A stretch of DNA of 64,000 nucleotides from Thermoanaerobaculia bacterium (GTDB taxonomy: Bacteria > Acidobacteriota > Thermoanaerobaculia > UBA5066), in NCBI GenBank assembly GCA_963719225.1, contig CAVRAY010000001.1, positions 1,952,001 to 2,016,000 on the forward strand, written 5' to 3'. This document shows, one piece after another, positions 939 to 54,939 of this stretch. Numbering within the stretch: the first letter of the stretch is position 1; the number at the start of each line of letters is the position of its first letter. Both the position numbers and the translations under genes were made by a program. A model generated the notes under the pieces. That model saw only the letters and a program-made list of their open reading frames with translations, ran no database searches and had not been told where the DNA came from.

Positions 939-1077
939 CCGCCGCGCGCCGGAGGCGAGGGGCACCGTGAACCGAAGACGAGGATTTCTTCGAAGGCTCG
1001 TGAGCGCTTCTCGATGCCGGCCTCGACGCACCGCGCCGGTAGCCGTCGCCTTCGGTACATGTTGTCGATCGCCACGC

Positions 1078-1416
1078 TCAGCCGCCCAGGATTTCGTTCA
1101 ACCCTTCGAGGACCTGCTCGAGCTCGTCCGGCGTGGCGCGCGCCAGGCGCTTCCCGAGCCTCTCCGTCGAGAGGGTCCGCAGCTGGCCGATCTTGACCCA
1201 GGACTTCTTCGGGAGCTTCGGGTCCGAAAGGGGAAGCGTGAGGGGGAATCCGGCCCGCGGCGCCTGACCCGTGAGCGCAACCGCGATGACGGTTCCGGAG
1301 TTTCGGTTGAAGACGTCGGCGCTCAAGATGAGTACCGGACGGAGACCCGCCTGCTCGCTGCCACGGACCGGGTTCAGGTCCGCCCAGACGATGTCCCCTC
1401 TCAGTAGGGCGGCCAT
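1078..1416 (-). CDS. mazF: Type II toxin, PemK/MazF family endoribonuclease
   Basis: MAALLRGDIVWADLNPVRGSEQAGLRPVLILS...KIGQLRTLSTERL is the classic MazF signature; overlaps the 3' end of the upstream antitoxin gene. Confidence 0.93.
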   Translation of the reverse strand: MAALLRGDIVWADLNPVRGSEQAGLRPVLILSADVFNRNSGTVIAVALTGQAPRAGFPLTLPLSDPKLPKKSWVKIGQLRTLSTERLGKRLARATPDELEQVLEGLNEILGG

Positions 1417-1640
1417 TCGGCGACCGGTTCCAGACCTTCCTCTGCGAGAGCACGCTCGACGCGGCGATCCAGCTTCGCGCACTCGCGTGCGAGGCGAGTG
1501 CCGTCGATCCGGCCGAGCTTGTCCTCGATGGAGTCCTGCACGAACCGGCTCCGGCTCGGGAACATGCCCCGACGAACGAGCCGGTCGACCTGTGTCAGCG
1601 TTCGCCGGTCCAGCGAGACGGCGACCTTCGCGGTTCTCAT
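1401..1640 (-). CDS. Ribbon-helix-helix (CopG-like) antitoxin
   Basis: 79 aa; KVAVSLD...VDRLV...FPSRSRFVQDSI RHH pattern; directly upstream of and overlapping mazF. Confidence 0.88.
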   Translation of the reverse strand: MRTAKVAVSLDRRTLTQVDRLVRRGMFPSRSRFVQDSIEDKLGRIDGTRLARECAKLDRRVERALAEEGLEPVAEWPPY

Positions 1641-1676
1641 GGGTATGACTCTAAGTCATACCCATGGATTCGTCAA
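1638..1676 (-). promoter_or_regulatory. Sigma70 promoter (TTGACG-17bp-TAGAGT) overlaid by a perfect 13-3-13 palindromic operator of the TA operon; leaderless start
   Basis: CATGGGTATGACT-CTA-AGTCATACCCATG at 1638-1666; -35 at 1671-1676, -10 at 1648-1653, ATG 7 nt after the -10. Confidence 0.85.
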
Positions 1677-1707
1677 ACGTCAATGCCGTCACTTCGAGAG
1701 GGACCCA

Positions 1708-3359: not shown

Positions 3360-3380
3360 GCTGCGGTGTGAGGCCGCCGG

Positions 3381-6269
<2,889 letters not shown>

Positions 6270-6370
6270 GCGGGCATCTCCTTATGACTTCAGGAATCTA
6301 CTCCGATACGCGGCCCGGCGCTTCGAAGTTTCGGAACGCGAGCGTATCGTGAAAGGGGAGCGGAGCTCGG

Positions 6371-7396: not shown

Positions 7397-7412
7397 GCCC
7401 TAGAATCGCGAC

Positions 7413-8606: not shown

Positions 8607-9521
8607 TCAACGGGGCTCGGGGCAGAACTCCTCGAAGCCGCGAGCGTGATCCCGGCGTGCGAGCCGCGAAGGGTCCGGGTCGCGCGGCAGGACGCCGAGC
8701 GCGATGAGCTGCGGCCGAAACTCGTAGCGCAGGCGCACGAGGGCGGCGGGTTCGCTCTCGAGCTCGAGGTCGACCTGCGTCACGCCGAACTGGGTTCTCC
8801 GACCCATGCCCGTCGCGGCGTACTCGTCCGAGAGCTTCGGGGAGGGAACGGGAGAAGTCGAAAGAGATTTCTGCGAGTGGTCCCGGGCCGTGCCGGACGG
8901 CTCGTTCTGCGCGATCCGGCCTTCGGCTTCGCCACCGTCCGATGAGGACCTTTTCTTCGAAAGGTCGCGATCGTCGCCGCGGCCGTCCGCCGCCGGCGCC
9001 GCGGCGGACGAGTCCGTATTCTCATTCGAAGGAATCCTCTCTCTTCTGCGGTCTTCTTCCTTCCACCACCTCTGGACGCGGTAGGGGAGTCTCTCGCGGA
9101 AGAACACCGCCTCGATGACGCCCAGGTCCTGGGTCTTCCCGAGCGCCGCGCCGTAAGAGCCGCGTTCACCCGTGAAGACGAACCTGCGGGAGGCCGCGTT
9201 CGAGACCTGCCAGCCCGGGATGATCACGGTTTCGTATGGCGCGAGGACCCATTTGCGCGCGTCCCGGGCCGTCGTGTGCCGGGAGTCGAGCGTGTTGAGG
9301 CCGTCCACCGAGAGCGCCACGGCGACGCGCGTTCCCGTCGGGTTCGAAAGGCGCAGGGCGTAATCGTGGCCGCGAAGCGCCTCGACGTAGACGGTGCCCC
9401 GCGAGGCGAACTCGGGGCGTTCGCGGCCGTCCACGAGGACGTCGAGGCCGAAGCCGAACGAAGAGGAAGCGTTCGCGGCCCCGGCGGTGAGGAGGAGTGC
9501 CGCGAGAATCTGGTGGCGCAT
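8607..9521 (-). CDS. Secreted hypothetical protein
   Basis: Signal peptide; beta-rich N-domain (YALRLSN...LSVDGLN...IPGWQ...LGVIEAVFFRE), low-complexity linker, ATGMG...LRYE C-terminus. Confidence 0.7.
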   Translation of the reverse strand: MRHQILAALLLTAGAANASSSFGFGLDVLVDGRERPEFASRGTVYVEALRGHDYALRLSNPTGTRVAVALSVDGLNTLDSRHTTARDARKWVLAPYETVIIPGWQVSNAASRRFVFTGERGSYGAALGKTQDLGVIEAVFFRERLPYRVQRWWKEEDRRRERIPSNENTDSSAAAPAADGRGDDRDLSKKRSSSDGGEAEGRIAQNEPSGTARDHSQKSLSTSPVPSPKLSDEYAATGMGRRTQFGVTQVDLELESEPAALVRLRYEFRPQLIALGVLPRDPDPSRLARRDHARGFEEFCPEPR

Positions 9522-9585: not shown

Positions 9586-11178
9586 TTGGATGCCCTGCAA
9601 AAACTCGCGGAAGCGGCTCGGGAGCTGGGGAAACCCCCGAAGGTCGCCCATGAAGTCGTAGGCTCGGTCCGAATGGGCCGAGCGCGCCGTGGAGCGGCGG
9701 AAGCGCCCGACCGGGCGGCGGTACCCCGCGCGGCGGCGGCCGGCGTCCGCGCCGTCCTCGTGGTCCACGGGATCGGGCAGCAGGTGCGCTTCCAGGCCCT
9801 GGACCAGATCGCGGAAGGGCTGCTGCGCGAAGCGGGTGACGGCGCGAGGAAGCCCGTCGCGCGAGCCGTCTCGATCGGCGACGAGATGTACCAGAGACTG
9901 GAGCTTTTTCTGCCGCTCGGGGACGGGGGAGAGCGCGAGGTCCACGTCTACGAGACGTACTGGGCCGAGCTCACGGAGGGACGCGTGACCCTGCGCGACG
10001 TGACGTCGTTTCTCTTCGGCGCCGCCCTCAACGGCTTTCGAAACCTCGGCGGCGTCCTGCGCGTCTCCTTCGGAAGCATCCACACGATTCGCCCGCCCCT
10101 CCCGGCCGTCCTCGGCCTTCTCGGCGCGTGCGCCGTTCTCCTCACGCTCGCCGCGATGAATGCCGTTCTTCTCGCGCTCGCCGCCCTCGAGGGGCTCCAG
10201 CCCGGCTTCGTACCCGCGTCGATCAAGGAGCGCTTTGCGGACAACGTTTCCGCGCTCCTCGCCCTTCTGACCGCCTTCAGCCTCGCCACGCTCGGCGTGC
10301 TGGCCCTCCTGTTCGTCGCGGCATGGGCGAAGCGGCGGACGGCGCGCGTGGGATTCGAGGGCTTCTGGCGCGCGGTCGGCGCGTCGCTGCAAGGCGTCTT
10401 CCTCGCGTGGCTGGCCCTGACGATTCTCGCGGGACTCGCCGTCGCGGTTCTCGTTTCGGGTGTCGGCCCCGAGGGGTGGACGCGCGAGGCTCTCTCGTGC
10501 CCATGGCTCGCGACACACTGGATGTTCCCTCTCGCCGCTCTCCTTCTCGCGTCGTCCGCGGTGAGGCGCTTCCTGGTCCAGTACCTGGGAGATGTCGCCG
10601 CTTACGTCACGTCCTACCGAATCGACCGCTTCGCAGAATTACGAAGCCGGGTAAAGGAGGTCGTTCGGAGAACCGCCGAGGCGGTCTACGAGGCGACTGA
10701 TAGCCCGGGGAGCAAGGTGAGGGCGTACGACGGAGTCGCCGTCGTGGCGCATTCTCTGGGGTCAGTCATCGCGTACGACGCGTTGAATACGCTCCTTCTC
10801 GATGATTCGTTCTGCGCCGAGACGCGCGACGTGGCGGAGAGAACCCGTCTCTTCCTCACGTTCGGCTCGCCGCTCGAGAAGATCGCGTTCGTATTCTCGA
10901 CGCGGGCGACGACGTACGCGCGCGAGGCCCTCGCGACGGCCTTGCAGCCCCTCATCAGCGATTACGCCTTCCGGCCGTTCCGTTGGATCAACGTCTTCTC
11001 CCCGCGCGACCCCATTTCGGGACGGCTCACGTCCTTCGACGACGCGAGCCAGCCGCTCTATCGCAAGCGGAGGATCCGCAATCTCCGGGACAGGGGAGCG
11101 GTGCTGCCCCTCCTCGCCCACCTGGAGTACTTCAGCGACCCGGTCCTGATTCGGCAGCTCGTCCGCGCTTTGCGGTAA
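9586..11178 (+). CDS. Membrane-embedded alpha/beta-hydrolase-fold protein (true start probably downstream of 9586)
   Basis: VVHGIGQQ, AHSLG nucleophile elbow, TFGSP, DPISG, AHLEY; several hydrophobic helices inserted between the motifs. Confidence 0.7.
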   Translation: MDALQKLAEAARELGKPPKVAHEVVGSVRMGRARRGAAEAPDRAAVPRAAAAGVRAVLVVHGIGQQVRFQALDQIAEGLLREAGDGARKPVARAVSIGDEMYQRLELFLPLGDGGEREVHVYETYWAELTEGRVTLRDVTSFLFGAALNGFRNLGGVLRVSFGSIHTIRPPLPAVLGLLGACAVLLTLAAMNAVLLALAALEGLQPGFVPASIKERFADNVSALLALLTAFSLATLGVLALLFVAAWAKRRTARVGFEGFWRAVGASLQGVFLAWLALTILAGLAVAVLVSGVGPEGWTREALSCPWLATHWMFPLAALLLASSAVRRFLVQYLGDVAAYVTSYRIDRFAELRSRVKEVVRRTAEAVYEATDSPGSKVRAYDGVAVVAHSLGSVIAYDALNTLLLDDSFCAETRDVAERTRLFLTFGSPLEKIAFVFSTRATTYAREALATALQPLISDYAFRPFRWINVFSPRDPISGRLTSFDDASQPLYRKRRIRNLRDRGAVLPLLAHLEYFSDPVLIRQLVRALR

Positions 11179-11181
11179 CGC

Positions 11182-11304
11182 AGAGAAAGAGGAAGACGAA
11201 AGAAAGATTTCTTAGAAGGTAAGAAGCGCGGCGCAGCAGGCGCGGTGCGCCGAGGTCGGCATGCGAGGCGCCTCACGCGCTTTCTAAGAAAATTCTCTTT
11301 CTTT
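11182..11304. repeat. Inverted pair of the dispersed CTTAGAA motif between convergent genes (stem-loop, terminator- or REP-like)
   Basis: AAGAAAGATTTCTTAGAAGGTAAGAAGCGCG (11200-11230) faces CGCGCTTTCTAAGAAAATTCTCTTTCTT (11276-11303). Confidence 0.75.
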
Positions 11305-11317
11305 GGCCCCGGTCTTT

Positions 11318-12877
11318 CTACGGAGGCGGCAATGCCGCCTTCAGGAACGCGCCGACGTCCTTGCGCAGCTTCGCGAGCTCGCCCGTGTGGATGTACATCA
11401 TGTGGCCGGCCTCGTACTCGCGTGCCGTGATCCGCGCCCGCTGGCTGGGGTCGAGGCCCATGTGCTGGAGCGTGTACTGCGTCGCGAAGTACGGCGTGGC
11501 GAGATCGAAGTGCCCCGAGGCGACGAAGAGCTTCATGTCGGGGTTCTTCGCGAAGGCCTGGCGCAGCGACTCGCTCGTGTCGGCGAAGCCGTTCCGCGCG
11601 CCCCAGTCCCACGGCCCGATGCCCCCGCCGAGGATGTGATACGTGGCGTCCGACTTGTAGCCGAGCGCGGCGCGCACGTATTGGTTGAACATGGCCGTGT
11701 ACGGCGGGCGAATGGCCGTCATGCTCGGGTCGAAATCGGGACGTTCGGAGACGGCGCTCTGGTCGATGCCCACGAACCGCGAGTCGAGCCGGCCCGCCGT
11801 CCGCCGCTCGTTCCGGAGGAGCTCCTTGCAGAAATGCTGGATCTCGATTCTGAGATCGGCGCGGTCGAGCCACGCCGCGTCCAGGCCGGTATAGCGCGCG
11901 AGGCGTTCGGCGATCGCCTTGCGCTCCGCCTGCGGCAGGGCATCGCCTTTCGCGAGAGCGAACGGATAGTCGCCGGAAGCGAACTTCTCGACTTCGTCGA
12001 GAACGGCGCGGAGGGGCTTGCTCTGGAGGTCGGCGGGGAGCTTCTTGTGGTACCAGGCCGTCGCCGTGTAGGTCGGGAGGAAGAGAGGATAAGGAAGGTC
12101 GTTGCCCTTCGTGAACTGGGCGGTCTGGAAGTTCAGGATGGACGACACGAGGAGGATGCCGTTGAAGGCGATTCCCTTGTCGACGAGGTGGCCCGAAAGG
12201 CCCGCAGCCCGGGTCGTGCCATAGCTCTCGCCCACGAGGAAGAGCGGCGAGGTCCAGCGTTCGTTTCGCGCGAGATAGAGGCGAATGAACTCCCCGACGG
12301 AAACGATGTCCCCCTCGACGCTCCAGAACTTCTTCCCGAGCTCCGGTTTGGCGGCGCGGCTGTACCCCGTCCCGACGGGATCGATGAAGACGAGATCGGA
12401 CTCCGCGAGCCAGGTTTCCTCGTTGTCGACGAGCGCATACGGAGGCGACGGCATCATGCCGTCGTCCTTCATCCGGACGCGCTTCGGTCCGAGGGCGCCG
12501 AGGTGGAGCCACACGGACGAGGACCCCGGGCCGCCGTTGAACGAGAACATGAGCGGCCTCTTCTCGGCCGGCGCGCCGGCGCGGTCGAGCGTGTAGGCGA
12601 CGAAGAAGATTCGCGCCTCGACCTCTCCCGACTCGCTCTTGAGCGGCATGAGGCCCGTCGTGGCCGTGTATTTCAGGATCCGCCCGCCGGCGCGGATTTC
12701 GTGGTGCGTGACGACGGGAGGCTCTTCCTTCTCCTCCTTCTTCTTCGGCTCGGGCGTCTTCGCCTTTTCGGACGCGGCGGCCTCGGGGCGCGGGTCGTCG
12801 GCCGGCGCGCTCGCCGGGCGAGCCGCCTGCGGCTGGGCGAGCAGGGCGAGGAGCGGAAGGATTGCGGACGCCGGCAT
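11318..12877 (-). CDS. S10 serine carboxypeptidase, secreted
   Basis: Start trimmed to MPASAILPLL (GAGGAGG RBS upstream); FNGGPGSSS, FIDPVGTGYS, GESYG, DLATP, YEAGHMMY motifs. Confidence 0.93.
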   Translation of the reverse strand: MPASAILPLLALLAQPQAARPASAPADDPRPEAAASEKAKTPEPKKKEEKEEPPVVTHHEIRAGGRILKYTATTGLMPLKSESGEVEARIFFVAYTLDRAGAPAEKRPLMFSFNGGPGSSSVWLHLGALGPKRVRMKDDGMMPSPPYALVDNEETWLAESDLVFIDPVGTGYSRAAKPELGKKFWSVEGDIVSVGEFIRLYLARNERWTSPLFLVGESYGTTRAAGLSGHLVDKGIAFNGILLVSSILNFQTAQFTKGNDLPYPLFLPTYTATAWYHKKLPADLQSKPLRAVLDEVEKFASGDYPFALAKGDALPQAERKAIAERLARYTGLDAAWLDRADLRIEIQHFCKELLRNERRTAGRLDSRFVGIDQSAVSERPDFDPSMTAIRPPYTAMFNQYVRAALGYKSDATYHILGGGIGPWDWGARNGFADTSESLRQAFAKNPDMKLFVASGHFDLATPYFATQYTLQHMGLDPSQRARITAREYEAGHMMYIHTGELAKLRKDVGAFLKAALPPP

Positions 12878-12934
12878 CGTGGCCTCCTCGGTGGAACTTT
12901 GACCGGGAAGGGGCGTACCGTACATGGCGAGCTC

Positions 12935-30371: not shown

Positions 30372-31245
30372 CGGTCTGTCGTGCCCGGCCGAACTTCGCG
30401 TAGATCGCGTTCCCGAGCGGCACCGCCACGAGCGCGAGTGCGAAGCCGCCGATGACGTCCGCGACGTAGTGATAACGGCAGTAGACCGTGGCGAGGATGA
30501 GGCCGACGGCGAACGGCAGGAACGCCCAGAACGTCTTTTTCGAGCGGCGATATGCCTCGAGGAGGATCGCGACGAGGACCATCGTGTGGCCTGACGGGAA
30601 GCAGTCCCGCTTGTTCTTCTCGAGGACGTCGAGGGTGTGATCGATCGCCTGTGAGATCGCGCCCCGCGGGAGCGGTCCGGCGTGCACGAGCGTGTAACGG
30701 GGCCCGGTCGCGGGCACGAAGAAGTAGCACGCGTAGCTGACGTAGAAGACGAAAACGATGACGAACGCGTAGCGCGGAAAGTCGCGCGTTTCCGCCGGGC
30801 GAGCCCGGTCGTCGAGGAGCACGAGCGTCCCCAGAATGATCGGATGGAAATAATAAAGGGCGTAGAAGATCGTCAGGACGTCCGAGAGGAACGGCGTCGC
30901 GATTGTCTCGAGCACCACCGTGGGGTCCGTTCCGAACATCGCGCGGTCGAGGGCGATGAGCGTGGCGTCGTAGTCGACGGGGTGCACGGCGCGGATGAGC
31001 GGGCCGAGCCCGTCGAAGATCGCGACGACGCAGCCAATGATGTAGTAGTCGAAGAGAATCCGAAGATTCTTAGAAGGTGAAGAGACGCGCGCGCGCATGA
31101 AGGCGATGCCCGCGGGTACCGCCGCGACCACGATCATCCTCAGAAGAACTCCTCGGTCCTCGAGCGCATCGATGCGCACGAGGCCGGCGAGAAAGAGAAG
31201 GGATGCGAAACCTGTCGTCAAAACGTCGACCGGCTTCCAACGCAT
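30364..31245 (-). CDS. PAP2-superfamily membrane protein, Aur1/IPC-synthase-like
   Basis: D..LIALDRAMFG, FYALYY, YFFVPATGPRY, DCFPSGHT, YCRYHYVADVIGG. Confidence 0.8.
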   Translation of the reverse strand: MRWKPVDVLTTGFASLLFLAGLVRIDALEDRGVLLRMIVVAAVPAGIAFMRARVSSPSKNLRILFDYYIIGCVVAIFDGLGPLIRAVHPVDYDATLIALDRAMFGTDPTVVLETIATPFLSDVLTIFYALYYFHPIILGTLVLLDDRARPAETRDFPRYAFVIVFVFYVSYACYFFVPATGPRYTLVHAGPLPRGAISQAIDHTLDVLEKNKRDCFPSGHTMVLVAILLEAYRRSKKTFWAFLPFAVGLILATVYCRYHYVADVIGGFALALVAVPLGNAIYAKFGRARQTAT

Positions 31246-34909: not shown

Positions 34910-35053
34910 TCTTGCTTAGGACCCGAGCGTCTGGCGACGGAGGGCGCGCGGAGACAGGTTCCCGCCTGTTCCGGGGACGTGGCCCGATTTCTTCGATGGA
35001 GGATGTTGCAGTTCGCGTGTGCGCCGCCGGGCGCCACGCGGCTCGGCCGCCGC

Positions 35054-36607
35054 ATGTTGCCTCTCTTACCTTCTAAGAAAATCTCCCGTCTTTTCTTCTC
35101 TCTCGCTTCCGGCGTCCTTCTGGCCCTCTGTTTCCCGAATTTCTCGATTCTTCCTCTTCTCCCCGTCGCGCTGATTCCGCTGCTCGCCGCGCTCGATGGC
35201 GCGCGGCCTCGAAACGCCGCGGTCCTCGGCTACGCCTTCGGGCTCGCCTTCTGGATCGTCACGATTCCCTGGATCGCGTACACGGTGCACCGATTCGGAG
35301 GCGTGCCGTGGGTCGTGGCGGGACTCGCGCTCGTGCTCGCCGCGGCCATCTGCGCGGTCCCGATGGCCGTCCTGGGGCTTCTGTACGCGTGGGCGGCGCC
35401 CCGCACCGCCGCCGGCGTCGTGGCGACGTTCGCCGCGGCGTGGGTCGTCCAGGAGTTCTTTCGCACGACCGTCTGGATCTTCGGCGGTTTTCCGTGGGCT
35501 CTCCTCGCGAACCCGCTCGCCGACGTCCCGCAGCTCCTCGGCACGGCCGCTCTCGGCGGCGTTCTCCTGTCGTCGTTTCTCGTGGCCTCCTTGAACGCCG
35601 CGCTGTACGTCGCGCTCACGAGACCCGCCCGGAATCTGCGGCTGGCGTGGCTCGCCGGCGCGGCGCTCGCCGCCGTGATCGCGGGGGCGGCCAGGCCCGG
35701 CCGCCCGGCGGCTCCAGTCGAGTTCCTGAGGGTGGGCGTCGTTCAGCCGAACGTCCCGCAGGACCTCCGCTGGGAGGCCGGCACCGCGGAACGGCTGCTC
35801 GCCGATCTGGAGGACCAGACGCGCGGCCTCTGTCACCACGGGCGGCCGGCCCTCGTGCTGTGGCCCGAGAGCGCCGCTCCCTATTCGTGGTCTTTCACAC
35901 CGGCTTTCCGCGAGCGGGTCGTCGCGCTTTGTCGAGAGCTCGACATCGCGATCCTCTTGAGCACCGTGTGGTCGGACGCGCCGGACGACCCGGGCGCCCC
36001 GTTCTACAACGCCGCTCTCCTCGTGACGAAGGACGGACCCGTGACGCCGCCCTATTTCAAGCAGCGGCTCGTGCCCTTCGGCGAGTACGTCCCGATGGCC
36101 GGCCTCCTCCGGAGGATCAGGCCCATCAGCCGCGCGGTGCCTTCGGCGTTCACACCCGGCGCCGGACCGGCTCTCCTGAGGCTCGGCACCTGGAGGCTCG
36201 GCGGCGCCGTGTGCTACGAGGTCGTCTACCCGTGGATCGCGCGGGAAGAGACGCGGGCGGGGGCCGACGTCCTCTTCACGCTCACGAACGATGCGTGGTA
36301 CGGCCGGGCCGGCGCTCAGCGGCAGCACTGGCAGTCGGCCGTCGTGCGCGCGATCGAGACGGGGCGCCCCCTCGTGCGCGCCGCGATCACGGGAATCAGC
36401 GGAGCCGTGGACGGAAGCGGGCGCGTTCTCGTCACCCTCGGCCCCGACACGAAAGGCGCTTTCGCGGTGCCGCTCGAGCGGCGCGCCGCGCCTGCGCCCG
36501 CGGCCGCCGCAGGCGACGCGGCGGCCTGGGTTTGCACGGCGGGGCTGGTGGCCGGTATTCTCCGTGCGCGGCTTCTCAAGCCCCGAGAGCCCGCGGCGGC
36601 CGGCTGA
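35054..36607 (+). CDS. lnt: Apolipoprotein N-acyltransferase
   Basis: GGFPW, VQPN, LWPES, YNAA, YFKQRLVPFGEYVP, VCYE, TNDAWY, RAIE; start uncertain. Confidence 0.95.
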   Translation: MLPLLPSKKISRLFFSLASGVLLALCFPNFSILPLLPVALIPLLAALDGARPRNAAVLGYAFGLAFWIVTIPWIAYTVHRFGGVPWVVAGLALVLAAAICAVPMAVLGLLYAWAAPRTAAGVVATFAAAWVVQEFFRTTVWIFGGFPWALLANPLADVPQLLGTAALGGVLLSSFLVASLNAALYVALTRPARNLRLAWLAGAALAAVIAGAARPGRPAAPVEFLRVGVVQPNVPQDLRWEAGTAERLLADLEDQTRGLCHHGRPALVLWPESAAPYSWSFTPAFRERVVALCRELDIAILLSTVWSDAPDDPGAPFYNAALLVTKDGPVTPPYFKQRLVPFGEYVPMAGLLRRIRPISRAVPSAFTPGAGPALLRLGTWRLGGAVCYEVVYPWIAREETRAGADVLFTLTNDAWYGRAGAQRQHWQSAVVRAIETGRPLVRAAITGISGAVDGSGRVLVTLGPDTKGAFAVPLERRAAPAPAAAAGDAAAWVCTAGLVAGILRARLLKPREPAAAG

Positions 36608-41845: not shown

Positions 41846-42496
41846 GTGCGGCGTCGCGTCCGGGAGCTCCTGACCGTTCTCGCGGCTGCGGGCGTCGGCT
41901 GCGGCTCACCCGACGCGAATCCGGCGGCGCCCTCGAGCGCGCCTGTCGCGCGCGCGGCCGAGGCGCGCGACGTCTATCGTCCTCCGGCCGACGGGCGCGT
42001 CACGACAGTCCAGGTGGAGATATTCCTGTCCGTTCTCGACCGCGTCCGCCTCGACCGGAGAGGGGAGAAACCCACCCCCGCCGGCGATCCTCTGTCGAGC
42101 GTTCCCGCCGACGTCGCCGCGGCCCGTGCTCGAGGCGTGAACGTCGAGGAGTTCCTCTGGGTCAAGGAGAGGGTGCTCGAAGCCGAGGCGGCGACCATGA
42201 CCGCCCGGCTCAACGCATCGGCTCTCGCGATGCTAGACAAGACGCTGGCCGACCTGAAGGCCCGGAGGTCGGACGCGGCGGACGAGGGGTCGCGAAAGCT
42301 CCTCGCAGAGCAGACGGCGCAGTTCGAGGCTGAAGCCGAACGGGTGCGCCGGGAGTCGAAGGTGCGCGAGAACGATGCCGTGCGCGCGAACATGAAGACT
42401 CTCGAGCCGTACCGCATGCGCCTCGCGGCGGCGCAGGACGCGCTCGAAAAGCCGCTTCTCAAGGAAGCGGAGAAGAAGAGCACCAAAGATTCTTAG
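41846..42496 (+). CDS. Putative lipoprotein, helical
   Basis: MRRRVRELLTVLAAAGVGC lipobox-like N-terminus; coiled-coil C-terminus. Confidence 0.65.
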   Translation: MRRRVRELLTVLAAAGVGCGSPDANPAAPSSAPVARAAEARDVYRPPADGRVTTVQVEIFLSVLDRVRLDRRGEKPTPAGDPLSSVPADVAAARARGVNVEEFLWVKERVLEAEAATMTARLNASALAMLDKTLADLKARRSDAADEGSRKLLAEQTAQFEAEAERVRRESKVRENDAVRANMKTLEPYRMRLAAAQDALEKPLLKEAEKKSTKDS

Positions 42497-42497
42497 A

Positions 42498-43367
42498 ATG
42501 GAGATACGGAGAGTCGGAATCCTGGGCGCGGGGCTGATGGGGTCGGGCATCGCGGAGGTGTGCGCGAAGGCGGGCTACGAAGTCGTCGTCCGTGAACCCA
42601 CGGACGAGCTGCTCGCGAAAGGGCGCAACCGCGTCACGCAATCCCTTTCTAAGGCAAGGCAGCGAGGCAAGCTGCGAGAAGAAGATGAATCCGCGATCCT
42701 CTCGCGGCTGCTCTTCTCCTCTTCACTCGAAGAAATCTCTTCTTCGGATCTCATCCTCGAGGCGATCGTCGAGAGCCTCCAGGCCAAGAAAGAGGCCTTC
42801 GAAGCACTCGACAAGTCGTGCGCGCCGCACGCGATCTTCTGCTCGAACACGTCGTCGCTGACGATCGCCGAGATTGCGGCGGCGACCGCGCGGCCGGATC
42901 GCTTCGCCGGATTGCACTTCTTCAACCCCGTCCCCGTGATGAAGCTCGTGGAGGTCGTGCGGGCGATCGGGACTTCCGACGAGACTCTCGCGCGCGTGAC
43001 GGCGTTCGCTCGAACCCTCGGCAAGGAGCCCATCGCGGCGCGCGACAACTCGGGATTCGTCGTCAACCGGCTGCTCGTGCCCTACCTTCTCGACGCGATC
43101 CGCGCGCACGAGCAGGGCGTGGGCACGCTCGAGGACGTCGATACCGGCATGAAGCTGGGCTGCGCGCAGCCCATGGGACCGTTCGAGCTTCTCGATTACG
43201 TCGGGCTCGACACCGTGTATGCGATCGCGGAGATCATGTTCACCGAGTATCGCGAGGCTCGCTTCGCGCCGCCGCCGCTGCTCAAGAGGATGGTGATGGC
43301 CGGGCGTTTTGGCAGGAAGTCGGGAAGGGGATTCTATGAATACGACGAGAAGGGGAACCGAAGATGA
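42498..43367 (+). CDS. 3-hydroxybutyryl/3-hydroxyacyl-CoA dehydrogenase
   Basis: GAGLMGSGIA, EAIVE, SNTSS, GLHFFNPVPVMKLVE, GFVVNR, PMGPF. Confidence 0.95.
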   Translation: MEIRRVGILGAGLMGSGIAEVCAKAGYEVVVREPTDELLAKGRNRVTQSLSKARQRGKLREEDESAILSRLLFSSSLEEISSSDLILEAIVESLQAKKEAFEALDKSCAPHAIFCSNTSSLTIAEIAAATARPDRFAGLHFFNPVPVMKLVEVVRAIGTSDETLARVTAFARTLGKEPIAARDNSGFVVNRLLVPYLLDAIRAHEQGVGTLEDVDTGMKLGCAQPMGPFELLDYVGLDTVYAIAEIMFTEYREARFAPPPLLKRMVMAGRFGRKSGRGFYEYDEKGNRR

Positions 43368-46074: not shown

Positions 46075-46085
46075 GTCATCCTTCC

Positions 46086-48728: not shown

Positions 48729-48803
48729 GGCCCTCCACCTCCTGTTCTTTCGTACCCCTCTCGCGCGGTTTCCTTCACCGCCAGCGAGGAAAATGACCTG
48801 GAA

Positions 48804-49487: not shown

Positions 49488-49497
49488 CGCAAGAAGC

Positions 49498-50649
49498 TCA
49501 GCCAGGGATCCAGCTGTCGTGGTAGCCGGGGTGCTCGAGTGCGAGGGCCTGCTCCGTGAGGTGGAGCGGGACGAACGTGTCCATCATGACCGCGAGCTCG
49601 TCGGTCGACCGCGAGCCGATCGATCCCTCGTAGGCGCCGGGGTGCGGGCCGTGGGGAACCCCCGAGGGATGCAGGGAGACGGCCTTCGGCCCCACGCCCT
49701 TGCGGCTCGTGAACGTGCCGTCCACGTAATAGATGACCTCGTCGCAGTCGACCGAGGCGTGCGGGTACGGACACGGGATCGCGTCGGGATGCGTGTCCGT
49801 GACGCGCGGAACGAACGAGCAGATGAGCGCGTTGCGCGCGCCGAAAGTGGAGTGGATGGTAGGCGGAAGGTGGATGAGGCCGGTCTTCGGCTGGTACTTC
49901 CGGATGTCGAACGCGAAGGGCCAGACCGTGCCGTCCCACCCGACGACGTCGAACGGCGAGACGAGGGGAGCGCGTTCGACGAACGCGTCGTCCTTCTTGA
50001 CGAGGATGCGCTTCGGCCCGGAGCGCGGACCCTTGAAAACGGGCCGGACGAAGTCGCGGTGCGTGTAGGGGGCATCCATGCGCAGCTGGCCGACGGGATT
50101 TCTGAACTCGCGGGGCAGGTGTAGTCCGGCGCGCAGTTCAAAGAGAACTCCTTCGAAAGGCGAAGAGATCCGGAAACGCGCGACGACCCCGCGGGGCACG
50201 AGCACGTAGTCGTTCTTCCGGACCGGAAGATCTCCGAAGGGCGACTCCAGCGTTCCCTCACCTTCGTAGAAAAAATACAGGTCGTCCCCGTCGCCGTTGC
50301 TGAACCCGTCGGGGCTCTCCGCCTCCCGGGGCACCTTGAACAGCGAGACCGTCACGTCGGAGTTGAAGAGGATCGGCGTGAATCCCTCGGGGGCCTTTTC
50401 CCCGAGGACGAGGCGGCGGCGCAGCGGTTGATGCCCCGCGGGCCGGGGAACCTGCCGGTCGAACCGGCCGGGCTTCGCCGGGCCGATGAGGGTGTCCGTC
50501 ATCGGCGGCCCCTCGTGGTAGAGGATCGAGAACTCCCCGTCGAAGCCGCGGCGTGTCAGGCACTCCTCGTAGCGCAGCGCCCCGGACGAGGAGCGAAACG
50601 CGGTGTGCGGCTTCGGAGGCACCTCCCCGAGCTGCATCCGATCGATCAT
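49498..50649 (-). CDS. hmgA: Homogentisate 1,2-dioxygenase
   Basis: PPKPHT, NGDGD, PFDVVGWDG, IHLPPTIH, PYPH..VDCDE, HPSGVPHGPHPG. Confidence 0.93.
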   Translation of the reverse strand: MIDRMQLGEVPPKPHTAFRSSSGALRYEECLTRRGFDGEFSILYHEGPPMTDTLIGPAKPGRFDRQVPRPAGHQPLRRRLVLGEKAPEGFTPILFNSDVTVSLFKVPREAESPDGFSNGDGDDLYFFYEGEGTLESPFGDLPVRKNDYVLVPRGVVARFRISSPFEGVLFELRAGLHLPREFRNPVGQLRMDAPYTHRDFVRPVFKGPRSGPKRILVKKDDAFVERAPLVSPFDVVGWDGTVWPFAFDIRKYQPKTGLIHLPPTIHSTFGARNALICSFVPRVTDTHPDAIPCPYPHASVDCDEVIYYVDGTFTSRKGVGPKAVSLHPSGVPHGPHPGAYEGSIGSRSTDELAVMMDTFVPLHLTEQALALEHPGYHDSWIPG

Positions 50650-51809
50650 CAGCCCACGACCTCGAGAGCGGGGGAGGCCTCACGCTGCGTCGCCTCGATG
50701 GATTCGAAGAGCGCGCGGAAGTTCCCGTACCCGAACCCGCGGTCGCCCTCGCGCTGGATGATCTCGTAGAAAAAGGGCCCGGCTTTCTCGTCGCCGTACA
50801 TCGCCATGGCGTCGAGCATGAAGATCTGGAGCATGTACTTGTCGTCGGCGCCGTCCAGGAGGATGTGGTTGCGCCTCAGAGCGTCCATCGGCTCCTTGAC
50901 GTTCGTGATCTTCACGTCCTCGAGGCGCTTCGGCAGCCTGTCGTAATAGGCCCCGGGTGCTTTCAGGAACTGAATGCCATGCTCGCGAAGGGCCTCGACC
51001 GCGGGAATGATCTCCTTCACGAGGAACGCGATGTGCTGCACGCCCGCGCCGTGATGGTCCTCGCAGAAACGATTGATCTGGCTGTCGCGGAAGAACGGCC
51101 GCATGGGCTCGTTCGTGGCGAGCTTCACGCCGCTCTCGGGATCGGCCATGACGATGGAGCGCAGGCCGGAGCCGGCGAGCCGCTTGCCCGTCCCCATCTC
51201 GGCGGTGTGGAACTCGACGTCCCAGTAGTGCGTGAACCCGAGGACGTCGCGATACCAGTTGACGACGGGCAGCATCGTGTAGGCGTTCGACGTCACGTGG
51301 TCGATCGTCGCGAAGCCGTGCGGGTTCTCGCGCGGCTTCCCGTCACCCACGTCGTCGAAATCAGGGGCGAAGCGCGGGTAGGTCCCTTGCCGCTCGATGA
51401 ACCGGAACGTGACGTCGTCGAGCGGCGTCGCGATGTTGAACGTCTTGAAGGTGCCGCCCGGAGCCTCGTCCACCGCGATGTCCGACAGAAACGTGGCGTT
51501 GCGCGCGGCGAGGAAATCCCAGGCGCCCTGGATGTCGCGCACGCGGAACGCGAGCGAGGAGATGCCGTCGGGATGGATCCTCAGGAAGCGGGCGGCGCGC
51601 GAATCTTTGCGCTCGGGGCTGGAGACGAGCACCCGGATCTGCCCGGCACCGAAGACGGAGGCCACCTCGCCCCCTTTTTCGATCTTCGAGGCGGACGCGC
51701 GCGCCACCTCGGAGAAGCCGAGCCCCGCGTAAAACCCGCGGCTCCGCCCGAGATCGGCCACGACGAAGTGGAACGAGTCGTAACCCACGATGCCGAGCGA
51801 ATCGACCAT
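50649..51809 (-). CDS. hppD: 4-hydroxyphenylpyruvate dioxygenase
   Basis: HPDGI, IDHV, SQI, GAGVQHIAF, LQIF, FYEIIQR, GFGYGNFRALFESIE. Confidence 0.93.
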   Translation of the reverse strand: MVDSLGIVGYDSFHFVVADLGRSRGFYAGLGFSEVARASASKIEKGGEVASVFGAGQIRVLVSSPERKDSRAARFLRIHPDGISSLAFRVRDIQGAWDFLAARNATFLSDIAVDEAPGGTFKTFNIATPLDDVTFRFIERQGTYPRFAPDFDDVGDGKPRENPHGFATIDHVTSNAYTMLPVVNWYRDVLGFTHYWDVEFHTAEMGTGKRLAGSGLRSIVMADPESGVKLATNEPMRPFFRDSQINRFCEDHHGAGVQHIAFLVKEIIPAVEALREHGIQFLKAPGAYYDRLPKRLEDVKITNVKEPMDALRRNHILLDGADDKYMLQIFMLDAMAMYGDEKAGPFFYEIIQREGDRGFGYGNFRALFESIEATQREASPALEVVG

Positions 51810-51869
51810 AATGCGATCTTAGTCCGCGGGAGCGCCGGGCGGGAAGATCGACCCGGCGGGGAAGGCGCG

Positions 51870-53165
51870 ATGGATCCGCAACGCCTCGTGTATGACTGGA
51901 ACCGCGCAGGAGGGGAGGGCCGGCCCCGCCACGTTCCCGTCGAGCTCGTCGACGAAACTCTTCGGGACGGTCTTCAGTCTCCGTCGGCTGTCGCGCCGAC
52001 GCTCGACGAGAAGTTCGACCTTCTCGTCTTGATGGAGCGCCTCGGCGTGGATACGGCCGTCATCGGGATTCCCGCCGCGGGCGGCAGCTCCGTCTCGGAC
52101 CTGTCGTGGCTCGTCCGGCGCATGACGGATTCGGGGCTTTCGCTCCGGCCGTGCTGCGCGGCGCGCACGCTCACGTCCGACATCGAGCCGATCATCGAGA
52201 TCTCCCAGGACACGGGCCGGGAAATGGAGATGACGACGTTCATCGGGTCTTCGCCGATCCGCCAGTACGTCGAGGACTGGGACCTCTCGCGAATGATGAA
52301 GCTCACCCGGGACGCCGTGTCGCTCGGTGTCCGCAACTCCCTTCGGGTCACCTTCGTCACCGAGGACACGACGCGCGCCCGCCCCGAGGACCTCGTCTCG
52401 CTCTACGGGACCGCTATCGCCGCTGGCGCCAGCCGGATCTGCGCCTGCGACACCGTGGGCCATGCAACGCCCGAAGGTGCCGCGGCGCTCGTCGGCTTTC
52501 TGGCGGAGTTCGTGGCGCGCGAGAACCCGGACGTGCTCATCGACTGGCACGGTCATGAAGACCGCGGACTCTCCGTCGCGAACTCGCTGGCCGCCCTGCG
52601 GGCCGGCGCGCACCGGGTGCACGGCTGCGGGCTGGGAGTCGGCGAGCGCGTCGGGAACACGCCGCTCGACCAGCTCCTCGTGAACCTCCAGCTCCTGGGC
52701 TGGATCGACCGCGACCTGTCCGCCCTCGCGACCTACGTCGGAAAGGTCTCCAGCTACCTGAAAGTCCCGGTCCCCGACGGGTACCCGGTGGTCGGCCGCG
52801 ACGCCTTCCGGACAGGGACCGGCGTCCACGCCGCGGCGATCGTCAAGGCCCGCGCGAAGGGCGACGACTGGCTCGCGGACAGGATCTACTCGGGTGTGCC
52901 CGCGGCCATGGTGGGCCTGACCCAGCTCATCGAGGTGGGACCGATGTCCGGCGAATCGAACGTGTTCTTCTGGCTGCGGGCTCGCGGCATCGACCCGACC
53001 CCGAGCCGGGTTGCCGCGCTCTACCGGGCCGCGAAGGCGTCCGACCACGTGCTTTCGGAGCCGGAAATCCGCACGGTGCTCTCGGCCCTGCCGGACGCGG
53101 GCGCCTCCGGGGTGTCCGCCCTCGAAGGCTCCCTGAACGAAACGCGAAAGGCTCTGCTTCCGTAG
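51870..53165 (+). CDS. DRE-TIM metallolyase, LeuA-like (short form, no regulatory domain)
   Basis: Start trimmed to MDPQRLVYDWN; DETLRDGLQ, EDTTR, DTVG, WHGHEDRGL, GVGERVGN. Confidence 0.85.
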   Translation: MDPQRLVYDWNRAGGEGRPRHVPVELVDETLRDGLQSPSAVAPTLDEKFDLLVLMERLGVDTAVIGIPAAGGSSVSDLSWLVRRMTDSGLSLRPCCAARTLTSDIEPIIEISQDTGREMEMTTFIGSSPIRQYVEDWDLSRMMKLTRDAVSLGVRNSLRVTFVTEDTTRARPEDLVSLYGTAIAAGASRICACDTVGHATPEGAAALVGFLAEFVARENPDVLIDWHGHEDRGLSVANSLAALRAGAHRVHGCGLGVGERVGNTPLDQLLVNLQLLGWIDRDLSALATYVGKVSSYLKVPVPDGYPVVGRDAFRTGTGVHAAAIVKARAKGDDWLADRIYSGVPAAMVGLTQLIEVGPMSGESNVFFWLRARGIDPTPSRVAALYRAAKASDHVLSEPEIRTVLSALPDAGASGVSALEGSLNETRKALLP

Positions 53166-53166
53166 A

Positions 53167-54102
53167 ATGGCCCGAGTGAGTTCGGGATCTCCTGCCAAAG
53201 CGCCGGCCGGCGTCTTCTTTCAAAGGCACCTCCCGCTCTTCCTCGACTATCTCTCGGCGGAGAAAGGTCTCGCCCCGAACACGTTGGAGGCCTATCGCCG
53301 TGACCTTGCTGGATTTGGCCGGTTTCTCGCCTCGTCGCGCACGAATCCCGCGGGCGTCACCCGGCGGGACATCGTCGCGTTTCTCGGCGCGCGGCGCGCG
53401 GACGGCATGTCACCGCGGACGCTGGCGCGGGTGACTTCGGCCCTGCGGGGCCTCTACGGGTTCCTGGCGGCGGAGAAGGTCCTCGAGGCCGACCCCACGG
53501 CCGACCTCACGAATGCCCGCCGGTGGGCGATGCTTCCGAAGGTGCTGTCGCCCGAGGACGTGACGCGCCTTCTCGACGCGCCCGACGTCGCGACGCCGAG
53601 GGGCCTGCGAAACCGCGCTCTTTTCGAGCTGCTCTATGCGTGCGGCCTGCGCGTCTCCGAGCTCGCGGAGCTCCCCGTCGAGGCGCTCCGTCTCCCCGAG
53701 GGGTTTCTCGTCGTCCGCGGAAAAGGCTCGAAAGAGCGCGTCGTGCCGATCGCCGACTCGTCCGCCCGCTGGGTCGCGCGCTACCTCGAAGCGCTTCGGG
53801 CCGAAAAACCGGGCGCGGCGACGAGATGGGTCTTCCCCGGCGGACGCGGAAAGCCGATCACCCGGCAGACGGTCTTTCTCGCTCTGAAAGCCGCCGCGCG
53901 AAAAGCCGGCCTGCCGGCGGCCTCGGTGTCCCCGCACGTCCTGAGGCATGCGTTCGCGACGCATCTGGTGGATAATGACGCCGACCTGCGCGCCGTGCAG
54001 ATGATGCTCGGCCATGCGGACATCGCGACGACCGAGATCTACACGCATGTGTCCCGCTCCCGTGTCCGGAAGGTCTACGACCGGACGCACCCGCGGGCAT
54101 GA
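53167..54102 (+). CDS. xerD: Tyrosine recombinase XerD (possible true start GTG 53176)
   Basis: EKGLAPNTLEAYRRDL, LPKVL, LRNRALFELLYACGLRVSEL, GKGSKER, HVLRHAFATHL, LGHADIATTEIYTHV. Confidence 0.92.
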   Translation: MARVSSGSPAKAPAGVFFQRHLPLFLDYLSAEKGLAPNTLEAYRRDLAGFGRFLASSRTNPAGVTRRDIVAFLGARRADGMSPRTLARVTSALRGLYGFLAAEKVLEADPTADLTNARRWAMLPKVLSPEDVTRLLDAPDVATPRGLRNRALFELLYACGLRVSELAELPVEALRLPEGFLVVRGKGSKERVVPIADSSARWVARYLEALRAEKPGAATRWVFPGGRGKPITRQTVFLALKAAARKAGLPAASVSPHVLRHAFATHLVDNDADLRAVQMMLGHADIATTEIYTHVSRSRVRKVYDRTHPRA

Positions 54103-54123
54103 AAGGCCGGGAAGAGGAAGATT

Positions 54124-54939
54124 TTGCTCAAGAGGGGAACCGAAGAAGAAGATTTCCTTAGAAGGGTTGCGAGAGCTGCCGGCGTTTGGGGCGGGCTCTT
54201 GCTCTTCATGTTTTCGGCACCCTCCGCGGCCGCGTCCCTCGTCGTCTTCGAGGACGGGCGGCACATTCGGGTCGCGAGCTACGAGGTCGTCGAGGAGGAC
54301 CGCCTGGCCGTGAACCTCGTCGGAGGGGGGTCGATCACGATTCCCCTCGACGTCGTGGAGCGCATCGTCGACGAGGAATACGAGCGGCCGGCACCGGTTC
54401 CCGAGAGCGTTGCCGCGGGCCTCGCGAGCGAGCCGCCGGCGCCGGAGAGACGTTCCGTCCGCGCCTTCTCGGAAAATGTCTCTTCTCCTTCGGCTCTCTC
54501 TTCCTCCTCAGCAGCCGCTTTCTCTTCCTCGACGCCTTCCCCCTTCTCCTCCCAGATCCTGGAGGCCGCGAAACAGCACCACATCGACCCGGCCCTCATC
54601 GCTGCGGTCATTCGCGCGGAGTCGAACGGCTATCCGCGCGCCGTTTCCCGAAAAGGAGCGCGCGGGCTGATGCAGCTCATGCCGGCGACGGCGCGGCGGC
54701 TCGGGGTGAAGAGCGCCTTCGACCCGCGGGAGAACATCCGGGCGGGCACGGCGTACCTCGCCGAGCTCGCCAAGCGATTCGGCGAGACGAACGCGGACCT
54801 CATCCTCGCGGCGTACAACGCCGGGGAGCACGCCGTCGAGGAGCACGGCGGCGTTCCGCCATATCGCGAGACGCGCGATTACGTCAGGCGCGTCCTCGCG
54901 TTCTGGGCCTTGCTCGCGGCGTCCCGATCGGCTCTCTGA
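54124..54939 (+). CDS. Lytic transglycosylase (SLT domain); start uncertain
   Basis: AVIRAES, AVSRKGARGLMQLMP, NIRAG..YL, LAAYNAG, PPYRETRDYV. Confidence 0.9.
   Translation: MLKRGTEEEDFLRRVARAAGVWGGLLLFMFSAPSAAASLVVFEDGRHIRVASYEVVEEDRLAVNLVGGGSITIPLDVVERIVDEEYERPAPVPESVAAGLASEPPAPERRSVRAFSENVSSPSALSSSSAAAFSSSTPSPFSSQILEAAKQHHIDPALIAAVIRAESNGYPRAVSRKGARGLMQLMPATARRLGVKSAFDPRENIRAGTAYLAELAKRFGETNADLILAAYNAGEHAVEEHGGVPPYRETRDYVRRVLAFWALLAASRSAL

Follow-up and report, generated by a model that had tools for sequence, protein, structure and literature searches.

The 64,000-nucleotide stretch analyzed here (the window) is C1:1952001-2016000 of G000, the genome of a Thermoanaerobaculia bacterium that comprises 4,750,048 bases in two contigs, C1 and C2 (GC content 67.7% and 68.7%; completeness 97%). 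It carries copies of an AT-rich motif, the 11-mer TTCTTAGAAGG, which forms the core of a longer, directional arm (about 40 nt: a purine tract, ATTTCTTAGAAGG and then TGAAGAGGG). Hundreds of such arms are dispersed through the genome, most of them inside genes and most in inverted, convergent pairs, and the repeat is restricted to one genus of soil Acidobacteriota. The reading we favor, to which we give about an even chance, is a genus-specific family of palindromic repeats, similar to Rickettsia palindromic elements (RPEs) or repetitive extragenic palindromic (REP) sequences, likely spread as mobile whole units.

A first-pass annotation of the window had described a recurring AT-rich motif on both strands with a purine tract upstream; the genome-wide scan agrees, and the motif is both real and more extensive than was then reported. 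Within the window, TTCTTAGAAG occurs 8 times at one mismatch or fewer, compared with a mean of 1.12 and a maximum of 6 in 100 dinucleotide shuffles, none of which reaches 8. Across G000 the same 10-mer has 181 exact copies where composition predicts about 1, and TTTCTTAGAA has 197 copies versus 0.49 expected, an excess that only poly-A/T surpasses among 10-mers counted at least 60 times (poly-A/poly-T 10-mers give 179 overlapping counts in this 68% GC genome). The 11-mer TTCTTAGAAGG is present in 170 exact and 336 one-mismatch copies, and Markov simulations of C1 return 0 and 42 at order 3 and 11 and 114 at order 5. Scores from a 34-position weight matrix built genome-wide are distributed bimodally; at the arm threshold of at least 18 bits there are 848 arms, 773 on C1 and 75 on C2, 430 on the plus strand and 418 on the minus, for an overall density of about one per 5.6 kb. 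Counting against a codon-aware background, as the annotation had proposed, leaves a clear excess: called coding sequence (CDS) holds 563 arms, where three runs of within-gene synonymous-codon shuffling leave 74-79 and two runs in which codon order is shuffled leave 4-5. Because arms in CDS lie far above both shuffles, the motif is written in codon choice and not in peptide sequence.

The lineage boundary is sharp. Exact copies of the 11-mer number 37-267 in 24 of 24 same-genus genomes and 0-2 in 16 genomes from two other families of the same order. A class-wide draw gives 51-201 in 10 of 10 genus genomes, 0-1 in 6 genomes of four sister genera in the same family and 0-3 in 134 others (no conclusion depends on G030, one near-zero genome of this draw). 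Taken together, 146 genomes of the class outside the genus have 0-3 copies. A 400-kb sample of the outgroup G040 (same order, other family, GC 67.5%) holds 2 arms, compared with 71 per 400 kb in G000. No comparable over-represented AT-rich 10-mer was found in that sample or in 400 kb of the sister-genus genome G086, so there is no sign of a motif "dialect" in the sister-genus sample. At the level of titles and abstracts, literature searches with the 11-mer returned only apparently unrelated eukaryote, virus and human-disease contexts, and searches on repeats and transposable elements of the miniature inverted-repeat type (MITEs) in Acidobacteria returned nothing on the present family.

Aligned copies are purine-only from about -20 to -3, followed by (A/T)T, the core TTCTT[A/C]GAA[G/A]G and then [T/G]GAA.AGGG; the arm consensus is thus a purine tract of 10-45 nt, (A/T)TTTCTT[A/C]GAA[G/A]G and TGAAGAGGG, with conservation that declines gradually outward and has no sharp terminus. 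The outer tract is sometimes a tandem hexamer, (CGGATT)n, or a run of GAA/GAAGAG repeats (C1:3791408, C2:746050 and unit K of G019), which suggests tract growth of the slippage type. Convergent inverted pairing, missing from the first-pass annotation, is the dominant arrangement: among neighboring arms less than 400 nt apart, 272 pairs are convergent (plus then minus), 18 divergent and 91 tandem, where random expectation is 15, 15 and 29. In all, 544 of the 848 arms (64%) lie in the 272 convergent pairs and 304 are solo. A unit reads GA tract, core, TGAAGAGGG, interior, CCCTCTTCA, inverted core, TC tract. Core-to-core distances run from 26 to 360 nt, with a mode of 70-90 and, on the lower side, a sharp shoulder near 63-66, and the middle between convergent arms varies from 40 to 250 nt. 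The median distance is 78 nt for 68 intergenic pairs and 124 nt for 152 CDS pairs; adding the tracts to the intergenic median gives a whole element of about 130-150 nt.

At orthologous intergenic sites some genomes have the whole unit and others lack it, which is how insertions behave. Synteny was followed by aligning 50-75 kb of five genus genomes (G001, G017, G019 and G044 among them) to the window, together with environmental contigs, that is, metagenome contigs from three DNA runs that are about 95-96% identical to the window and represent relatives, not necessarily the same species. The window holds one complete palindromic element of 130 nt at 11179-11308, between the convergent genes 9673-11178(+) and 11318-13735(-), with a GA tract (11179-11204), a left core (11209-11219(+), 38.9 bits), a GC-rich interior, a right core (11280-11290(-), 32.8 bits) and a TC tract (11291-11308). 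Its site is empty in G003, where the stop codon runs straight into the downstream flank, and in environmental contigs, which join 11168 to 11316 or 11327 with 17-25 other letters between; in G011 the orthologous site holds an element with longer tracts and a homologous interior. A unit of 134-159 nt found only in G019 is absent from 4 of 4 other genomes. For another, found only in G001, flank mapping reveals no arm in 4 of 4 others (length differences -121, -130, -130 and -33 nt), and alignment shows clean absence in 3 of the 4, the G044 site holding other sequence. The spacer that separates genes 49498-50649 and 50649-51809 is occupied in three genomes (G017, G019 and G044) but stands empty in G000 and G001, and two further syntenic loci have lost one arm together with the interior. 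The units gained and lost measure 95-160 nt. Many other arms are orthologous in all syntenic genomes with zero length difference. Under the favored reading, then, the units would likely spread by whole-unit insertion, and the arms would be candidate sequence-specific recognition sites for a trans-acting recombinase or transposase, or for another DNA-binding protein.

Most arms lie in genes even though intergenic DNA is about 3-fold enriched for them: 287 are in CDS in the sense direction, 282 in CDS antisense and 279 intergenic (569 of 848 in called CDS), a split that is approximate because genes were called with a home-made codon-bias caller (3906 genes, 89.6% of G000 covered). Within called open reading frames (ORFs) there are 164 pairs and 205 solo arms; 291 called genes have at least one arm and 177 at least two, in all frames and evenly along gene length. 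The arms would be tolerated there because purine and pyrimidine tracts are free of stops and the stop in the core is removed by a change of A to C or T. Of 279 intergenic arms, 178 have A at position 5 of the core; among genic arms whose frame would expose TAG/TAA, the base is C or T in 87 of 92 (sense) and 128 of 133 (antisense). This count is partly circular because ORFs define genes; the C variants are concentrated in just those stop-risk frames. Elsewhere the core supplies the stop codon (21 genes) or the start codon (8 genes). Read in mRNA sense on either strand, GA prevails in the first arm and UC in the second, with predicted peptides rich in E/K/R/G (DFLEGEE, EFLRRK, EKISLKGEEG) and in S/P/L/F (SPSKKSSSS, SFEEIPSS, YFLRKSSS), respectively. 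On the evidence of open frames, genic units are predicted to be translated in frame, as are RPEs. The codon-usage score for the interiors of CDS pairs is intermediate (0.13, compared with 0.26 in the flanks), consistent with a mixture of inserted and native sequence.

Comparison of G000 proteins with the 400-kb outgroup sample took in 73 arm sites, paralogous kinases accounting for many, and places insertions of 6-36 aa at arms in IleRS, AlaRS, a DnaE-like protein, an acyl-CoA-synthetase-like protein and others. The strong IleRS pair, followed in 26 genus species, has its left arm in 26 of 26 and its right arm in 22 of 26; the left arm is a 6-aa insertion plus an overlay that turns native KFFDHV into DFFERV, and the right arm is a 16-aa insertion. 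An AlaRS arm present in 16 of 17 species is likewise an insertion, of about 25 aa.

Much of what was found in genes and in the interiors nevertheless weighs against insertion of whole mobile units as a sufficient account. Many pairs bracket native sequence: 22 residues in IleRS, about 45 aa in AlaRS, about 97 aa in g186, the kinase alpha-C region and the N-terminus of Hbd (3-hydroxybutyryl-CoA dehydrogenase). In 15 kinase paralogues the pair is exactly 91 nt apart around a genuine alpha-C region. Other arms involve no change in length. In AlaRS, two arms (columns 1026 and 1231), one present in 17 of 17 species and the other in 15 of 17, show no length difference from the outgroup, and the same is true of an arm at column 800 found in only 3 of 17. 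In hbd, the arm RLLFSSSLEEISSSD stands where sequences outside the genus have RISGTTxLEDLADCDL, with no insertion or deletion relative to 7 out-of-genus homologues. Insertion of units explains neither the bracketed sequence nor the arms without length change. Interiors are no more helpful to the mobile-unit reading: when 258 were compared, the only large cluster was that of the 15 kinase paralogues, the remainder falling into clusters of 2-3, and for siblings of two species-specific units the best match was 76%. A classical MITE would have siblings, and the interiors here are unrelated, although the window element at 11179-11308 does have one sibling, at C1:947477, with 93% identity to its interior over 30 nt. 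No target-site duplication is visible in four filled/empty alignments, whose flanks have diverged. The Y1_Tnp/RAYT transposase family (PF01797) has 0 matches in G000; the same search is positive in 6 of 14 control genomes. No autonomous element with the same ends was found, the 16 convergent solo pairs 0.4-4 kb apart being about the number expected by chance, and such long-range pairs enclose mutually unrelated genes (transporter, ABC protein, HisZ/HisG-like and similar housekeeping genes). To these may be added the cautions already attached to the gene calls, the stop-avoidance count and the predicted translation. It is because substitution arms, bracketed native DNA and the maintenance of A/T positions without covariation (below) go unexplained by insertion that the mobile-repeat reading is held at no more than an even chance.

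Two observations made along the way belong beside these loci. At C1:2.293-2.320 Mb about ten paralogous genes for Ser/Thr kinases lie in tandem, each with the 91-nt alpha-C arm pair and with a Ser-rich insert after ..SFEEIP... An IS110-family insertion sequence (IS) of 1.5 kb is present at C1:1111421-1112942, 2198825-2200346, 2200822-2202332 and 2206288-2207809, with a partial copy at 2209325-2210162; it contains one arm-like motif, GATTTCTTAGAAGG, about 65 nt from its 3' end, and three copies have a common upstream flank, ..CTAACGATATC(A/G)AG(C/T)TCAGCGGCGAG.., that looks like a preferred target. We considered this IS (4-5 copies) as a mobilizer or as an element that targets arms and rejected it: the copies are not in arms, are not bounded by arms and have another flank in common.

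The hbd arm and its counterparts in the synthetase genes show how arms are kept. The Pfam 3HCDH_N match pairs Hbd residues 6-183 with profile positions 2-179, which leaves no net insertion. Arm peptide and arm DNA are present in 27 of 27 genus orthologues that span the region (one further match is partial); the nearest Hbd homologues in public contigs, from 3/64 of the collection scanned, belong to Thermoanaerobaculia or Acidobacteriota metagenome-assembled genomes (MAGs) at 69-70% amino-acid identity. The annotation had suggested ortholog alignments as the way to separate insertion from substitution; in such comparisons the PAP2 and Hbd arms involve no length change, and the Lnt and SLT loci are length-variable. 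Under the arms of G000, codons of other species carry A or T at the third position at frequencies of 0.49 in IleRS (25 species, 1037 codons) and 0.53 in AlaRS (16 species, 641 codons), compared with 0.13 in the rest of these genes and 0.16 in aligned outgroup codons. At the hbd arm the value is 0.47 versus 0.13 elsewhere (25 gap-free sequences including G000), and GAA GAA is kept in 17-18 of 25 sequences even though GAG prevails elsewhere. Synonymous codon identity at the hbd arm (0.61) does not exceed the 0.68 found over the remainder of the gene. The sites are thus not frozen but have a compositional equilibrium of their own, and this suggests a persistent force. Something beyond transposition would thus keep orthologous arms near consensus, either selection for binding or a drive through biased conversion or uptake, and the same force may also create arms by substitution beside native coding sequence. 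The first-pass annotation's remark that copies use different frames with rare A/T-ending codons is borne out, and its proposal that selection acts on the DNA and not on the protein is supported by the codon shuffles and by A/T third positions that are raised and kept over 16-25 species. Its suggestion of a decayed repeat family was half right: the pairing (272 convergent versus 18 divergent) and the unit insertions speak for a repeat family, which is not simply decayed because its arms are actively kept near consensus.

Partner arms were compared by core-anchored, in-register matching (68 intergenic and 152 CDS pairs) and by duplex energies, which replaced ungapped identity of the outer tracts, a measure (0.305 for partners versus 0.302) that is uninformative because the tracts are out of register. 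Matches to the partner and to arms of other elements average 16.49 and 16.64 in intergenic pairs (z -0.6) and 16.62 and 16.58 in CDS pairs (z +0.2), and the partner duplex energy is -47.6 kcal/mol compared with -46.5 for other arms (p 0.07). Partner arms being no more alike than unrelated ones, there is no stem covariation and no trace of mutual copying. Each arm thus seems to be drawn separately to one genus-wide consensus, as would be expected if a protein of fixed specificity recognized the arms. The same comparison goes far to make it very improbable that the pairs are RNA hairpins (mRNA stabilizers, processing sites or bidirectional terminators) whose stem is under selection, since it leaves complementarity unconserved. 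Folding does offer that idea something: the window element forms one long hairpin with a 26-bp interrupted stem (-53.2 kcal/mol, z -2.5), the mean z against mononucleotide shuffles is -2.3 for 67 intergenic and -1.6 for 129 CDS pairs, and 149 of 279 intergenic arms are nearest to a gene 3' end. However, loops of 100-300 nt of native coding sequence make poor hairpins, two thirds of arms lie inside ORFs, where termination would be harmful, and an Rfam search with the element at 11179-11308 gave no match (two sub-threshold chance hits only).

If a protein reads the arms, it need not be a mobilizer. The arms could be sites of a genus-specific host DNA-binding protein that loops or bridges convergent pairs or organizes a terminus-centered chromosome, with purifying selection retaining the sites and unit insertion only one route by which they originate; we regard this as rather unlikely. 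It would account for the single consensus to which each arm conforms independently of its partner, stable across the genus genomes searched, for the retention of A/T third positions in essential genes, for arms born by substitution next to native sequence and for the strong preference for convergent orientation. Chromosomal distribution adds a further hint. Arm density is 26.1 per 100 kb in C1 0.8-3.1 Mb, 11.0 elsewhere on C1 and 8.6 on C2; the dense 2.3-Mb block is centered on the cumulative GC-skew maximum at 2.09 Mb, the presumed terminus, and density falls abruptly at about 3.1 Mb (from 38 to 11 per 100 kb) with GC content equal throughout. Since the origin-proximal 1.6 Mb of C1 is lower by only 2.4-fold, this is enrichment at the terminus and not restriction to it, and the contrast may instead track old versus newly acquired DNA. 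A similar central enrichment in the 3.67-Mb contig C4 of G044, seen among the first 100 of 119 forward-strand matches listed, is not independent because arm positions are inherited. Solo arms divided by replichore and strand (70/66 and 78/63) show no strand polarity, and so the first-pass annotation's suggestion of a chromosome signal retains only the terminus density as a hint. Against a host protein, too, no candidate was identified, pair distances lack helical (about 10.5-bp) periodicity (top power 5.8, below the 95% null of 6.9), and it is implausible that selection would have the strength to recast aminoacyl-tRNA synthetase loops at hundreds of sites when 10% of the genome is intergenic.

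The headline of the first-pass annotation was an uptake or chromosome-signal sequence. DNA uptake sequences (DUS) of Neisseria and uptake signal sequences (USS) of Pasteurellaceae have a short conserved core with weaker flanks, occur in both orientations and in coding DNA, and keep orthologous positions. The present arms resemble them in their lineage-wide excess, their two orientations, their occurrence in coding and non-coding DNA and their strong core with weaker flanks, and they could have accumulated as uptake or recombination-drive signals through preferential uptake and recombination, although we consider this quite improbable. Lineage specificity, hundreds of copies in strand balance (430/418), CDS copies in all frames, substitution arms at core-like proto-sites (KFFDHV to DFFERV in IleRS, LED to LEE in Hbd), orthologous copies held against GC pressure and a second replicon that is less dense all speak for such a system. 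ComEC, DprA and ComEA-like genes, which the annotation had proposed to look for, are indeed present in G000, but they are uninformative because the same families also match in E. coli and 9-10 other controls. The arrangement of the arms is harder to reconcile with uptake: 64% of them pair convergently at distances of 26-360 nt, divergent pairs being nearly absent, and we know of no described uptake sequence that requires spaced convergent pairs. Moreover, whole units of 95-160 nt with their own interiors are gained and lost, the density of about one arm per 5.6 kb is several-fold under that of DUS and USS, and the sister genus offers no dialect in its 400-kb sample. The over-representation behind the headline therefore stands, the pair geometry and the unit insertions run counter to it, and no discriminating result favors it. 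FtsK-orienting polar sequences (KOPS), Chi and matS differ from the arms in that no strand polarity switches here at origin or terminus. The probability left beyond the four readings considered (mobile repeats, host-protein sites, uptake signals and RNA hairpins) is assigned to no explanation.

For the favored reading, a mobile repeat family, the closest known analogues in behavior are RPEs and intragenic REPs; of the three options that the first-pass annotation offered, the repeat family, with its RPE precedent, is the best fit. RPEs are described as palindromic sequences of about 100-150 bp, lineage-specific and without a known transposase, as are the present units, and both lie in frame in unrelated housekeeping genes as extra peptide segments, a reading frame that is here predicted (PMC10969869). 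In R. conorii there are 44 insertions, about half of them in ORFs (Ogata et al. 2000, 2002, as reviewed in PMC10969869), compared with 569 arms in 291 called genes here. The host here is a free-living acidobacterial genus with 68% GC; no sequence relation is claimed, and no RPE sequences were compared. In the present family the arms alone are conserved and the interiors are unrelated, many pairs surround native coding sequence and some arms come without an insertion or deletion; RPE peptides are conserved as units, whereas the six frames here give different peptides. Because the host belongs to the Acidobacteriota, membership by descent is implausible, and the likeness is one of working and not of identity.

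REPs and their inverted dimers (REPINs) resemble the arms in occurring as hundreds of lineage-specific copies, mostly inverted head-to-head dimers (PMC3733652), and in lying between unidirectional or convergent ORFs, with occasional stop codons and sometimes intragenic positions (Di Nocera et al. 2013, PMC3733652). A REP unit is a GC-rich imperfect palindrome of 20-40 nt; the present arms are not short GC-rich stem-loops, their logo lacks the GTAG or CGTC tag and has the AT-rich core TTCTT[A/C]GAA, and their dimer spacing is long, variable and often made of host sequence. REPs are also predominantly extragenic, in contrast to the 569 of 848 arms in CDS. With no gene for a REP-associated tyrosine transposase (RAYT), no tag and mostly intragenic positions, the family is not a REP/RAYT system.

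Bacterial MITEs in general are small, have terminal inverted repeats, are polymorphic for presence and absence, and occasionally form in-frame fusions (PMC10969869). The Correia elements of Neisseria and enterobacterial repetitive intergenic consensus (ERIC) sequences are examples. Convergent arms take the place of terminal inverted repeats in the present units, which likewise are small, vary in presence and occasionally fuse in frame with genes. They differ in having no conserved interior, no fixed length (26-360 nt), no autonomous partner, no sharp terminus, arm conservation fading outward instead, and no target-site duplication seen in the four alignments with diverged flanks. Lacking a common interior and a partner, they are not classical MITEs.

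In addition to the complete element, the window holds copies in several other settings. All six copies that the first-pass annotation ranked best score as arms, at 26.7-38.9 bits. Its eight degenerate copies divide: cores at 986-996, 9023-9033, 42724-42734 and 50149-50159 reach 18 bits, those at 8869-8879 (10.3 bits), 8953-8963 (14.1) and 54464-54474 (16.0) are weak, and 42643-42655 falls below 8 bits. A copy that it lacked has its core at 50261-50271 (20.2 bits). The solo arm at 974..1010(+), a purine tract with the core TTCTTCGAAGG at 986-996 (24.8 bits), adjoins the 5' end of a minus-strand gene ending at 965 and has no partner of at least 8 bits nearby. A genic element occupies 8940..9060(-) inside the 304-aa ORF 8607-9521(-); its core at 9023-9033(-) scores 29.6 bits, with the decayed partner at 8953-8963(+) and the weak core at 8869-8879(+), and its in-frame reading is ...WKEEDRRRERIPSNEN...ARDHSQKSLSTSPVPS.... 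All 12 genus orthologues of this ORF have the low-complexity linker or element, with an interior of varying length; G011 has an additional arm and G004 lacks the left one. The frame is intact in 10 of the 12. Orthologues in G007 and G008 have stops or frameshifts within the element, which would count against tolerated in-frame units and which are attributed, without proof, to assembly indel errors in two genomes of 53% and 88% completeness, represented by few contigs. Environmental contigs replace or skip 8789-9092.

The 501-aa ORF 9673-11178, which adjoins the complete element at 11179-11308, has no Pfam match and is gone from the syntenic site in G007 and G017; the flanking blocks of both genomes come to within 2-4 nt of each other. 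In the PAP2-family gene 30364-31245(-) (Pfam PAP2_3), an arm at 31045..31095(+), with its core at 31067-31077 (31.3 bits), is read antisense as ..VSSPSKNLRIL..; a 198-nt region around it is of equal length in 6 species, and arm quality differs through point substitutions only. The arm at the lnt 5' end (34985..35105(-); core 35069-35079(-), 38.8 bits; lnt ORF 35003-36607) has a decayed partner at 34989-34999(+), 80 nt off and scoring 11.8 bits. Pfam LNT_N starts at residue 36 of the product, and 5 of 5 syntenic genomes have an arm cluster at this locus, of variable length.

A convergent pair at 42470..42755 (cores 26.7 and 29.5 bits) surrounds the start and first 79 codons of hbd (42498-43367). 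The left core, TTCTTAGAATGG at 42490-42500(+), contains the TAG that ends the upstream ORF as well as the ATG that opens hbd, and the right core, 42724-42734(-), is read as SSSLEEISSS. The upstream ORF (41846-42500) abuts hbd in G000 and lies 70 nt to 3.5 kb from it in most genus genomes; because this spacing varies, the junction is a rearrangement hot spot beside an arm. Syntenic genus genomes also differ by 95 nt in length upstream of hbd. In the HgmA_N-like gene 49498-50649(-), a weak convergent pair at 50130..50290 (cores 50149-50159(+), 19.0 bits, and 50261-50271(-), 20.2 bits) is present at unchanged length in all 4 syntenic genomes with the flanks and lies within the Pfam match with no insertion; these could be coding look-alikes of an ancient pair. 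Finally, an arm at 54135..54490 between a xerC/D-like recombinase gene (53176-54102) and an SLT gene (54199-54939) has its core at 54155-54165(+) (27.0 bits) and faces a weak opposed arm at 54464-54474(-). At this site G019 and G044 have a full plus/minus pair and are 83-120 nt longer; G017 and G000 have the left arm only.

Association with tRNA genes, suspected from one pair at C1:3124482, was considered and set aside: ARAGORN finds no tRNA in the window. A separate multi-copy sequence at 14236-14500 recurs at C1:3327262-3327526 (100%) and at C1:2461944-2462203 (95%), with matches of 83-97% at several places in other genus genomes, and summed contig depth over it rises to 270-1024 in the three environmental runs.

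If the family is indeed a mobile palindromic repeat, it would be among the densest in protein-coding genes that we have met, its 291 arm-bearing called genes including those for IleRS, AlaRS, a DnaE-like polymerase and a Ser/Thr kinase family. It would then amount to a natural experiment on the absorption of linkers into proteins, carried out in a lineage that is GC-rich, free-living and soil-dwelling instead of reduced and intracellular. Three features go beyond the RPE precedent, namely third positions kept at about 50% A/T, arms without length change and pairs around native coding sequence, and together they make the question of junk, drive or function in such repeats directly testable. At a practical level, the AT-rich, low-complexity islands formed by arms can mislead gene callers, the choice of start codons and the placement of domain boundaries in Thermoanaerobaculia MAGs. 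A broader idea, which we entertain tentatively and think less probable than not by some way, is that a live system, specific to the genus and able to read sequence, places convergent pairs of sites around host DNA, essential genes included, and keeps them there. It might be a molecular drive, working through a bias in uptake or conversion or through templated replacement of patches, or else a chromosome-organizing protein. Were this so, about 850 sites would be held against GC pressure throughout the genus, protein loops would have been rewritten as a by-product, and the arms would belong to an undescribed kind of DNA-protein system and not to a decaying selfish repeat.

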